A stretch of DNA of 20,000 nucleotides from an uncultured virus (IMG/VR IMGVR_UViG_3300037493_002973) (lineage: Duplodnaviria > Heunggongvirae > Uroviricota > Caudoviricetes), in IMG/VR virus record IMGVR_UViG_3300037493_002973. One strand, written 5' to 3'. This document shows, one piece after another, positions 1,775 through 19,344 of this stretch (positions within the stretch are counted from its first letter, which is position 1; every line of letters begins with the position of its first letter). The notes below the pieces were generated by a model that did no database searches, was not told the DNA's origin, and worked only from the letters and a program-made list of their open reading frames with translations. The translations under genes and the position numbers were made by a program.

Positions 1775-2368
1775 TTACCCGTTTATCCGTTCAAATTTCA
1801 CCCATCCAACCATATCGAGATCTTCCATAAAGTTATTCTTTTGCCCCCTCTTGCCGACATAATGCCAAAGAGTTCTATTCTGTTTCCCGTGCCCGTTCTG
1901 TATTGCATGGGATATGAATGGAGGATTCAATATGCGGTGTATTTTCTCTTCATGTATTCTCAAGGGATTTCCTGTAATGCCGTCCAGGAGAAAGTCGTAG
2001 GAATTTTCCTCCTTCATTTGCTGCCTACCTTTTTCCGTTAGGGCAAACAGAAGGGAGCCATCCTTGCATTCCGTTACAAGTGCATAATCAGATTTCCCGT
2101 ATAAGTTCCCTATTTCGGAAACATTCTCGGAGATGAACTTTGTAAGGAGTGCAAATTGGGGCACTTCTCCGAATATCTCGTAAGCGCCTACTGGCTTGGA
2201 AGATAGGTCGAGGAATCTGAGGTGAACAAACCTTCCTTTATTCGTGCTGTTTGTAACGATTTGAAGCCCTACAACATCTATGTGTGGACCGTTGAAGCGA
2301 ATCCTCGGGAGAGGTAACTCGAAGTCTAACTGCGGAGGAGTAAAATCCTCAAGGTCGTATTGGGTCAT
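1775..2368 (-). CDS. hypothetical protein (start revised to 2368, 197 aa)
   Basis: ATG at 2368 forms an ATGA overlap with the methyltransferase stop, removing the 70-nt overlap of the 2434 call. Confidence 0.7.
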   Translation of the reverse strand: MTQYDLEDFTPPQLDFELPLPRIRFNGPHIDVVGLQIVTNSTNKGRFVHLRFLDLSSKPVGAYEIFGEVPQFALLTKFISENVSEIGNLYGKSDYALVTECKDGSLLFALTEKGRQQMKEENSYDFLLDGITGNPLRIHEEKIHRILNPPFISHAIQNGHGKQNRTLWHYVGKRGQKNNFMEDLDMVGWVKFERING

Positions 2369-3183
2369 TTCTCCCATTGTTCTGTAATTTTTAACTGTTC
2401 TATTTTGAAATAAACTCTCGCTATGTTCCTCCAATCTTTTACATAAATTGGCATCAATATTTTTTTATTTCGTTCTCCAATTTTGATGATATGCTTTACT
2501 AAATTATCAGTTGTAAAATCTTCAAGTTTTTCAATTCCGTAATATCTACGCACAAAATCAAGCCTTTTAAACCTTTTGTGCCCAAGTTCTCCAAGAGTAA
2601 TTACCAGTCCTTTTTTTGCCATCTTAATTGATAAATCAAAGCAATCATAAGCACTTCCAAACGGGTCTAAATCTACAAGGTCATATTTATTTCCTCCTGC
2701 ATATTGCATACAGCAAAAAGTCAAAGCATCATAATTGTAATCTGTACTAAACGAAACTTCTACATCATTAGTCACAATTTTTTTAATCCCATAAGTTTCG
2801 TAAGCGCTTTTGCTCCCTGAAAAAACATCTAAAACGCTATCAATTTTAATTTCAGCAATAAACTTTTCGTTTGTGCTATATTTCTCTGCTCGATGCGGGT
2901 CATTATACGTTTTATTTGCCTTTCCCAATCTTTTCATCTTAATTGAAACCTGTGTAATATCTCTGTCAATACATTCTGCAATCTGTTTTGTGTTAAGACC
3001 TTTTTCTTTTAACATATTTACCCATTCAATTTCTTTTTCCGTCCATTTACGAGGTTGGAATTTAGTTAAACCTCCATTTTTAGTGTGCTCTCCCTTATAC
3101 TCGGGTGGCATTAAATATGGATTAGTAAAAATGTCCATGAAAATTGGGGTGTCTGTTTTTGAATAAAGTTTATCATTTCCCAT
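2365..3183 (-). CDS. N-terminal HTH/Myb-like domain fused to a class I SAM-dependent methyltransferase, Trm1-like catalytic domain
   Basis: RKWTEKEIEW..GLNTKQIAECIDRDITQVSIKMKRL (HTH); VLDVFSGS (motif I), TND, DA, YDLVDLDPFGS (Trm1-type motif IV), GLVIT; start TGATG-coupled to the nuclease stop. Confidence 0.75.
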   Translation of the reverse strand: MGNDKLYSKTDTPIFMDIFTNPYLMPPEYKGEHTKNGGLTKFQPRKWTEKEIEWVNMLKEKGLNTKQIAECIDRDITQVSIKMKRLGKANKTYNDPHRAEKYSTNEKFIAEIKIDSVLDVFSGSKSAYETYGIKKIVTNDVEVSFSTDYNYDALTFCCMQYAGGNKYDLVDLDPFGSAYDCFDLSIKMAKKGLVITLGELGHKRFKRLDFVRRYYGIEKLEDFTTDNLVKHIIKIGERNKKILMPIYVKDWRNIARVYFKIEQLKITEQWEK

Positions 3184-3899
3184 CACGAAAATTGTTTAGT
3201 ACATGTATTCCGATACCCGCAAACAGCATTACAGAAATACCCGTTGTCCTTCATTGGGTAATCCCCCGAATAGGCTTCTATTTCTGAAACCATTTTATCT
3301 GCCCAATCCCAAGCTTCTATGTAGTCCTCTACTTTAAAAGGAACTATTAACGGAAGTTTCTGCCTGAAGTGAAAGAAGATTAAACGTTCGGGAAATTTCC
3401 CAAACTCCTCCTTAACGGCAGTACTGTAAAGATACAACTGACGGGCTTTCTCCTTCAACTTAGCCCCTTCGTAGGGCTTCGCGCATTTGTAATCTGTAAG
3501 GATTAAATTACCGTTTGTAGATGAAAGTCCTAATCGGTCTACATATCCTTGGAATAGGTAATTATCCCTTTGCAGAAGTACGTGCTGTTCTACCCAAATA
3601 GCTTCCGTGCTGAATCCCTTGAAGGTCTTGAAGAAGTTATCTGCTTCCTTCTTCCAGTTATCCATCCAAGAAATTTCGTGGGGTAGACCTACTTCGATTG
3701 GGTATCTATTGTTCCACTCCGTAAAGGCATACTCAGGGGATATTTCTTTTAGGTCTAACTTTTCAAAAATTTCGTGACCAAGAGTTCCGAAGCGGCTAAA
3801 GAAATTATCCTCTCCCTTATCCCCATCTATGTAGTTATTCTTCCATGCTCTTTTGCATGTGTCCCAAGAACTAAGGCGGCTAAAACTGAACGTGGTCAT
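3183..3899 (-). CDS. PD-(D/E)XK exonuclease, Cas4/RecB(AddB)-like, probable Fe-S cluster
   Basis: SFSRLSSWDTC, GTLGHEIFE, E..GYVDRL..LTDYK, QLYLY motifs; one N-terminal Cys plus C-terminal CNAVCGYRNTC. Confidence 0.9.
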   Translation of the reverse strand: MTTFSFSRLSSWDTCKRAWKNNYIDGDKGEDNFFSRFGTLGHEIFEKLDLKEISPEYAFTEWNNRYPIEVGLPHEISWMDNWKKEADNFFKTFKGFSTEAIWVEQHVLLQRDNYLFQGYVDRLGLSSTNGNLILTDYKCAKPYEGAKLKEKARQLYLYSTAVKEEFGKFPERLIFFHFRQKLPLIVPFKVEDYIEAWDWADKMVSEIEAYSGDYPMKDNGYFCNAVCGYRNTCTKQFS

Positions 3900-6586: not shown

Positions 6587-6660
6587 CACGCAAGGAGGGG
6601 TCGAACCTCATCTCTTCTTACCTATTTCTAGGTGCGTTCTACCTTTGAACTACTTACGTG
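6587..6660 (-). ncRNA. tRNA-like element (pseudo-tRNA with non-canonical anticodon arm)
   Basis: CACGTAAG-TA-GTTC AAAGGTA GAAC-GC-ACCTA GAAA TAGGT-AAGAAGAGAT-GAGG TTCGACC CCTC-CTTGCGTG: acceptor stem, D arm with GG and T arm with TTCGA are all present; intergenic. Confidence 0.7.
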
Positions 6661-18708: not shown

Positions 18709-19344
18709 TTATTTCTTCAACATTTCTGCGTAAAGGTGCGTAAGCTCCCTCCTTTCGCTTAGTCCGTTAATCCCTCCGTTAATTCTCTTGGCTACTGCTA
18801 CGATAGAGGCATCGGAAATGTCCTTACATAAATCCCAAACATTATTCTTGTTGAAGAAAAATAAAGCGGAATCGAAAGCGTATGTAGTAGCAACTAAATC
18901 GGGAACATTCATAATCCCTTGGCTTGAGATACTATCTGCAAAATCTTGGTAGTTGTTCTTTCCAGTCAACTGAATTGCGCCCCTTCCACGGTATTTCCAA
19001 GAATCTCCACTCGCTTCATTCCCATTACCCATTCTATTTGCGTAAACCTTATTGGCAATCTTCTCGGGATTTTTAGCGTAACCTAATGTAGATTTTAAGG
19101 AAAGGAAATACTTATTGAAAGTAGTTACAAGTCCTGCTCCGCTATAATTAAGATTCTCTTCAAACTTTGTAAATCCTCCTGATTCGTGATGGCATTGCGC
19201 GAAGAAGTGCGCTGCATGTACGTCAGATAGGTGAAAATAAGCCGCTGCTGCCCTTATCGTGTTCTTTCCTATACTTCCATCGGGAGTAACGCCTATCTTC
19301 AATTGTAGGGCTTTAATTGTCTCTACGTGTTTCTTGTCTGCCAT
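18709..19344 (-). CDS. endolysin, glycoside hydrolase family 19 with short N-terminal peptidoglycan-binding module
   Basis: IKALQ..GVTPDGSIGKNT (PG-binding); HFFAQCHHESGGF, ENLNYS, YRGRGAIQLTGKNNY, INGGINGLSER (GH19 motifs). Confidence 0.93.
   Translation of the reverse strand: MADKKHVETIKALQLKIGVTPDGSIGKNTIRAAAAYFHLSDVHAAHFFAQCHHESGGFTKFEENLNYSGAGLVTTFNKYFLSLKSTLGYAKNPEKIANKVYANRMGNGNEASGDSWKYRGRGAIQLTGKNNYQDFADSISSQGIMNVPDLVATTYAFDSALFFFNKNNVWDLCKDISDASIVAVAKRINGGINGLSERRELTHLYAEMLKK

Follow-up and report, generated by a model that had tools for sequence, protein, structure and literature searches.

An optional, recently inserted gene of an uncultured virus encodes an HTH joined to a shortened Trm1-type domain, and we put the probability at roughly 55% that its product (P0001) is a stand-alone SAM-dependent DNA amino-methyltransferase guarding phage DNA from host nucleases. 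The gene was found in a stretch of 20,000 nucleotides (the window) of a 74.7-kb virus record, where it lies in the early/replication arm. Its open reading frame runs on the minus strand from an ATG at 3183 to a stop at 2365, and an in-frame GTG at 3186 would add one residue. It overlaps both neighboring genes by a few bases, the stop of the upstream nuclease overlapping its start codon. The coordinates are listed in Table 1. No DNA-modification gene was found among its own neighbors in the window. By eye, an ORF at window positions 18709–19344 (minus strand) resembles a glycoside hydrolase family 19 endolysin, and an ORF elsewhere in the virus genome (G000 C1:49183–49839) carries C5 DNA methyltransferase-like motifs.

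Table 1. Features of the methyltransferase gene and its flanks (window coordinates)
Feature	Position	Strand	Basis or remark
HTH + mini-Trm1 methyltransferase gene, product P0001, 272 aa	2365..3183	-	ORF, homologues, and helices of the model
Upstream PD-(D/E)XK (Cas4-like) nuclease	3183..3899	-	PD-(D/E)XK_1 match, E 2e-17; insertion flank, not partner
Downstream ORF	1775..2368	-	directly after the nuclease in the empty allele
Empty-site stretch, 815 nt	2363..3177	.	absent in close relatives
Three-helix HTH (Myb/GcrA-like), residues 44-88	2920..3054	-	PHROG 323, Pfam, and predicted helices
Class I Rossmann methyltransferase domain, residues 89-266	2386..2919	-	collinear with the catalytic domain of Trm1, whose helical insert behind strand 5 it keeps
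Motif I (VLDVFSG)	2815..2835	-	glycine loop ~4 residues shorter than that of Trm1
Motif II (ND)	2764..2769	-	acidic residue in 74/74 divergent members (69 D, 5 E)
Motif IV (DLDPFGS)	2653..2673	-	D171 and D173 invariant, 74/74

The original prediction, made from the sequence alone, had named this ORF and a series of motifs, all of which we located in the product in the order given there: VLDVFS (residues 117–122), ND (139–140), DA (152–153), YDLVDLDPFGS (167–177), FDLSIKMAKKGLVIT (182–196), RRYYG (212–216), and ARVYFKI (255–261). The HTH/Myb-like domain that it placed at the N terminus matched PHROG 323 (residues 40–103, E 4e-6) and coincided with three predicted helices (49–60, 65–72, and 76–86), and Myb, GcrA, or HTH_38 Pfam matches were obtained for a few family members. 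This domain probably binds DNA. An AlphaFold model of P0001 built with 78 sequences (mean pLDDT 86, pTM 0.70) showed a seven-strand Rossmann domain at residues ~89–266. We also considered the HTH as a circularly permuted C-terminal region of Trm1; the match scored −1.1 bits, leaving permutation unsupported.

Of the proteins known, Trm1 comes closest to P0001 in both profile and fold, as had been claimed. A Foldseek search with the model returned Trm1 chains at ranks 1–5 (E 7e-10 to 1e-7, TM ~0.5). In VIA, Trm1 chains aligned over 173–176 residues (Z 14.2–15.7, rmsd 2.7–2.9), and all other entries among the best 50 over no more than 161. The VIA Z-score by itself only ties Trm1 with rRNA-methyltransferase-like chains (1wxw, 15.7; 3c0k, 15.2–15.4), of which just 145–149 residues aligned; RsmD (2fpo) reached 13.3. 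No solved DNA methyltransferase appeared among the best 50 matches of three fold searches, and in the structural comparison proposed along with the original prediction the best matches were neither m6A/m4C DNA methyltransferases nor RsmD-type enzymes.

The profile data point the same way. A 74-member family profile matched the Trm1 of P. horikoshii and A. aeolicus (E 1e-8 and 1e-7), crossing the Trm1 helical insert and reaching strand 7 (3axs aligned at 77–229), and also matched the full-length Trm1 of locus L249 (95%, E 4e-8). Pfam TRM (PF02005) was matched by 77 of 78 aligned members and DNA methylase families by none. P0001 itself scored below the curated cutoffs (Pfam, 21.1 against 27 bits; TIGR00308, 19.1 against 280.65 bits). 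The C-terminal domain of Trm1 (~235–380), predicted to be missing, is indeed absent: the model covers Trm1 residues 17–232 of 387, and the protein ends 6 residues later. Because homology to Trm1 is combined with the loss of this domain, other differences, and sub-cutoff scores, P0001 is Trm1-derived but not a Trm1.

Trm1 is the tRNA (guanine26-N2)-dimethyltransferase, and every close solved relative of P0001 is an RNA enzyme. It is therefore conceivable that P0001 keeps the chemistry and the substrate class of Trm1 and methylates guanine N2 of RNA (tRNA of host or phage, or another RNA), the HTH standing in for the lost RNA-binding domain; its role would then be to tune translation or to shield tRNAs from anticodon nucleases. 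We consider this unlikely. The top structural matches are all RNA methyltransferases and the Trm1-specific insert is retained, but the C-terminal domain of Trm1 is missing, and the neighbors of the family are DNA enzymes. The tRNA-like RNA 3.4 kb from the gene (window 6587–6659, minus strand), which had been proposed as a substrate, counts in favor of an RNA target by its position and against it by its abnormal anticodon loop. It passed the Rfam tRNA model (35.8 bits; cutoff, 29) and has a 4-bp T-stem; ARAGORN missed it at default and, at a relaxed setting, assigned no amino acid because of the anticodon loop. It is probably a degenerate tRNA. The RNA is thus real, and the link to the methyltransferase is unsupported: a tRNA gene of any kind occurs in only 3 of 55 family loci, and we rejected a tRNA link for the family.

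Comparison with other methyltransferases bears on the argument from motif IV, in which DLDP(F/Y)GS had been set against the PP motif of DNA m6A/m4C enzymes. Excerpts of PMC4738411 give (D/N/S/H)PP(Y/F/W) as motif IV of N6-adenine/N4-cytosine DNA methyltransferases and place N2G, N6A, and N4C enzymes in one common clade. DLDPFGS is present in P0001, and no motif IV variant with PP was found in 259 proteins (DPFG in 182, DPYG in 27, and DPCG in 18). As a guide to the target base, motif IV alone fails, since guanine-N2 RNA enzymes also use NPPF and NLPY, the forms carried by RsmC and Trm14 according to an excerpt of PMC3367198; target sites of Trm1 proteins are described as hard to predict from sequence in the part of PMC4033218 consulted. 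The phage members matched no DNA methyltransferase family in Pfam, NCBIfam, or PADLOC, and hhalign gave no match between the phage family and a beta-class alignment (E 0.07). In the ESM Atlas, the best clusters were viral TRM-like proteins of 185–197 aa, and with PF02005 set aside, all leads (Tgs1/RsmD-like) stayed under 0.9.

The putative catalytic residues are strongly conserved in an alignment of 74 divergent members whose mean column identity is only 21%. Besides D171, D173, and the motif II acid (Table 1), K101 (73 K, 1 R) and R256 (72 R, 2 K) are near-invariant, which makes an inactive methyltransferase domain improbable. Y93 is retained in 77 of 78 and in 67 of 74 members, and a basic helix, GHKRFKR, is conserved at residues 201–207. 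In P. horikoshii Trm1, F27 is the N-terminal aromatic residue that stacks on guanine, and F27, D138, and F140 are residues with assigned roles; the range ends of the 2dul match (91 against 25) would equate Y93 with F27 only if the stretch is ungapped. The SAM lobe of P0001 is shortened, lacking the second glycine of motif I and helix B. With the N-terminal HTH, these losses would suit a transcription regulator whose degenerate methyltransferase domain serves as a SAM/SAH sensor, a reading that we regard as very unlikely given catalytic-site residues invariant across the 74 members and the full GxG loop of the archaeal branch described below.

The gene is optional, recently inserted, and travels alone. 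Contigs from three of four runs (three studies) join position 2362 to 3178, skipping the whole gene, and one run contains both forms; these joins were called at a likeness threshold of 85 with short sides of 28, 53, and 95 letters, the shortest being weak. In the empty form, two codons retained from the start of the gene are read in frame into the downstream ORF. The gene has a GC content of 0.32 (GC3 0.26), compared with 0.41–0.44 (GC3 0.45–0.49) in the flanking genes. A six-letter word occurs at both gene ends (3183–3178 and 2377–2372) and once more inside the gene, and other contigs diverge from the window sequence at 2372, suggesting that the gene was inserted by short homology. Contigs of an RNA run (X23) cover the flanks and the empty joint with only scraps of the gene, contigs being no gauge of expression.

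The closest relatives (L001:5900–6850, L002, L004, L005, and L054) reside in integron-like cassettes, in which inverted core sites bracket the gene (the left core site was not found in L005) and a hairpin of ~125–130 nt overlaps its 5' end (fold z −2.0 in L001, −3.1 in L054, −2.3 in L004, and 0.0 in L002). The cassette element also encodes the variable N-terminal leader. Together with the empty site and the low GC, these integron-like sites show that the gene travels alone. Such mobility bears on the coupling to the Cas4-like nuclease in the original prediction. The stop/start overlap stands, and on that basis P0001 could pair with the nuclease in a two-gene system and supply its modification half. 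This is extremely improbable and largely refuted: the nuclease occurs without the methyltransferase gene in relatives with an empty site and was not a recurring neighbor in 55 loci, so a functional meaning of the coupling is unsupported. No viral locus was found for relatives of the nuclease. The link between the two genes is positional.

We compared the phage loci with two controls after dereplication at 90%, which reduced the family from 55 to 40 loci, an ERF-like control from 78 to 18, and N6/N4 methyltransferases from 80 to 77. A DNA-modification gene lay within 300 bp in 11/40 family loci against 0/18 of the ERF-like control (Fisher p 0.012), a result that is borderline after correction because four distances were tried, and that rests on a small control and on profiles for C5 and Mom whose seeds came in part from the tested loci. 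At larger distances from the gene, the difference from this control faded (1 kb, p 0.06; 2 kb, 18/40 vs 6/18, p 0.57; 4 kb, 18/40 vs 8/18, p 1). Compared with beta-class N6/N4 methyltransferases (15/77), the rate within 300 bp was similar (p 0.35). No neighbor family is conserved across the 55 loci; the commonest clusters were a gene that we take to be NinG-like (11 loci) and DNA methyltransferases (10 loci).

Fusions were also observed. One sequence (P0122) is joined to a C5 DNA methylase, possibly as a read-through of two neighboring genes, and in 8 sequences of two clusters (P0123 and P0124) the partner is a phage radical-SAM protein (PHROG 9298). At L237:2799–6049, an HTH + Trm1-like gene lies directly behind a fusion of a QueC/Asn-synthase-like protein and a C5 methylase, beside a recombinase. 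At one locus (L052:1229–10029), a divergent member overlaps an unclassified gene, presumably TGT/DpdA-like by motif, in a cluster with FolE2, a radical-SAM (QueE-like) gene, and an intein-bearing QueC-like gene. This overlap and the radical-SAM fusions would be expected of a tailoring enzyme that works with partners and whose methylation substrate is a protein, a nucleotide, or a base that already carries a modification. We find this decidedly unlikely, as the gene moves as a single unit, no neighbor family is conserved, and the preQ1 methylase DpdM has an unrelated fold according to an excerpt of PMC10516641.

Word counts on both strands of the virus genome revealed strong avoidance of GATC (50 vs 413 expected), CCGG (2 vs 261), CTAG, and CCWGG-type sites, with near-total loss of CCGG, GATATC, TTCGAA, and CCATGG. 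This indicates restriction pressure and argues against blanket protection, making a site-limited mark more plausible. No methyltransferase target motif emerged from the k-mer bias; GCGC and CGCG are not avoided.

Distant matches, including proteins that carry the names of Pyrococcus kukulkanii and an Archaeoglobales archaeon, led to an archaeal sister branch with the same Myb-like HTH and Trm1-like domain (hhalign 99.9%, E 4e-37, 223 columns). Its fold appears to be Trm1-like, judging from profile matches in which Trm1 was the best PDB entry (E 8e-9). These proteins retain the full GxG loop, mostly carry DLDPCG, and match PADLOC mad2 over the SAM lobe (E 2e-14 to 3e-6). They form one clade (support 99/96) in a midpoint-rooted tree of 61 rows, from which P0135 was dropped and which, without true Trm1, is silent on origin.

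Among 11 metagenome loci, we left out L249, a true Trm1. In nine of the remaining 10 (L239–L245, L247, and L248), genes for the nuclease NurA and the ATPase HerA adjoin the methyltransferase gene, as one operon in five loci and convergently in four. The archaeal methyltransferases fall into four groups that are only 29–41% identical to one another, so the association does not reflect one recent copy. Locus L244 has an N6/N4 methyltransferase upstream of the cassette, and L242 has a TIR-domain gene. Since the methyltransferase is tied to a DNA nuclease-translocase pair, its simplest reading is as the modification half of a restriction-like system, and the cassette is a separate candidate defense system; no HerA-NurA cassette linked to a methyltransferase turned up in the titles and abstract openings of the literature searched. 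This context is the strongest contextual argument for a DNA substrate. It is indirect for the phage branch, because neither NurA nor HerA occurs in any of the 55 phage loci. Taken with the phage neighborhoods, it favors DNA, one of the substrates that the original prediction had offered.

A protein search yielded 828 homologues at E≤0.001 among 1143 candidates, with 51–91% identity among the 120 matches listed; with the TRM matches noted above, this shows that the ORF is not a chance one. A profile search of 1.84 billion representatives found 92 proteins at E≤1e-30; at 1e-10 there were 373, with HTH repeats among the weaker matches. Nearly all members come from metagenomes, where they are labeled hypothetical or, automatically, Trm1. 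One (L046:5920–6914) is split over two overlapping frames, by a frameshift or an assembly error. The loci comprise 53 from viral contigs and 2 from 185,579 prokaryote genomes. The host probably belongs to the Bacteroidota, as the only two genome-collection matches are small contigs in Flavobacterium and Chitinophagales MAGs. Neither P0001 nor P0265 had any match in 50,697 GenBank phages or 72,556 plasmids, and two other members reached only 16–35% coverage there (E 0.04–0.09), so these collections gave no full-length match. As far as these searches reach, the family is widespread and, the archaeal branch excepted, confined to uncultured viruses. Neither a phage Trm1-like family nor N2-methylguanine in phage DNA is described in the titles and abstract openings of the open-access literature searched; the matches in PMC8651126 were to Trm112.

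We take the DLDPF aspartate to be the catalytic residue that is essential in S. pombe Trm1. That essentiality is stated in an excerpt of a preprint (10.1101/2023.04.12.536578). On our preferred reading, a DNA methyltransferase, SAM would be held at motifs I–III (D119, G123, and D140), and duplex DNA would be gripped by the HTH and the basic helix. The base would be flipped into a pocket lined by F175 and probably Y93, where D173, in the role proposed for the aspartate of Trm1, would position or deprotonate the exocyclic amine for the transfer of one methyl group to the base.

If the substrate is DNA, we would apportion the target, as a judgement, at ~45% guanine N2, 35% adenine N6, and 20% cytosine N4. 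Guanine N2 is the single best guess because of the Trm1 ancestry of the pocket, and overall its methylation on DNA by P0001 is a tentative, somewhat doubtful proposal. We hold with similarly low confidence the broader idea that a Trm1-derived family exchanged tRNA for DNA as its substrate and produces N2-methylguanine there, serving as the self-marking half of the archaeal cassette and as a mobile anti-restriction gene in phages. The known sites of enzymatic DNA methylation (C5 and N4 of cytosine and N6 of adenine) all face the major groove; at guanine N2, only mono-methylation would keep G:C pairing on DNA. N2-methylguanine, if written, would join m5C, m4C, and m6A as the fourth methyl mark that enzymes place on DNA. 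A Trm1-type enzyme acting on DNA would either mark guanine in the minor groove or reach m6A/m4C by a second route that needs no PP motif.

Set beside known systems, the HerA-NurA helicase-nuclease pair (PF01935 and PF09376) adjoins the archaeal sister branch and is absent from all 55 phage loci. Orphan phage N6-adenine/N4-cytosine DNA methyltransferases (PF01555 and kin) are likewise small, accessory, mobile single genes, and they adjoin other DNA-modification genes at a similar rate; they differ in their (D/N/S)PP(Y/F) motif, absent from the P0001 family, and show no profile match. The rRNA methyltransferase domains 1WXW, 3C0K, 4DMG, and 2FPO, which we label RlmI/RlmO-type and RsmD-type, share the Rossmann core (Z 13–15.7) but align over 25–40 fewer residues, lack the Trm1 insert, and give weak profile matches (E 0.03–0.8). 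Trm1 itself (PF02005, TIGR00308; PDB 2DUL/2EJT/2YTZ and 3AXS/3AXT), with structures reportedly by Ihsanawati (2008) and Awai (2011), shares the class I fold, the DLDP(F/Y)GS motif IV, the ND motif II, and the helical insert that follows strand 5 and closes with R-Y-G-like residues, and is collinear with P0001 to strand 7. P0001 differs from it in lacking the C-terminal domain (~140–155 aa) and helix B (17–30 aa), in a shorter motif I loop, in TxGE in place of TATD, and in having an added N-terminal HTH and occurring in phages.
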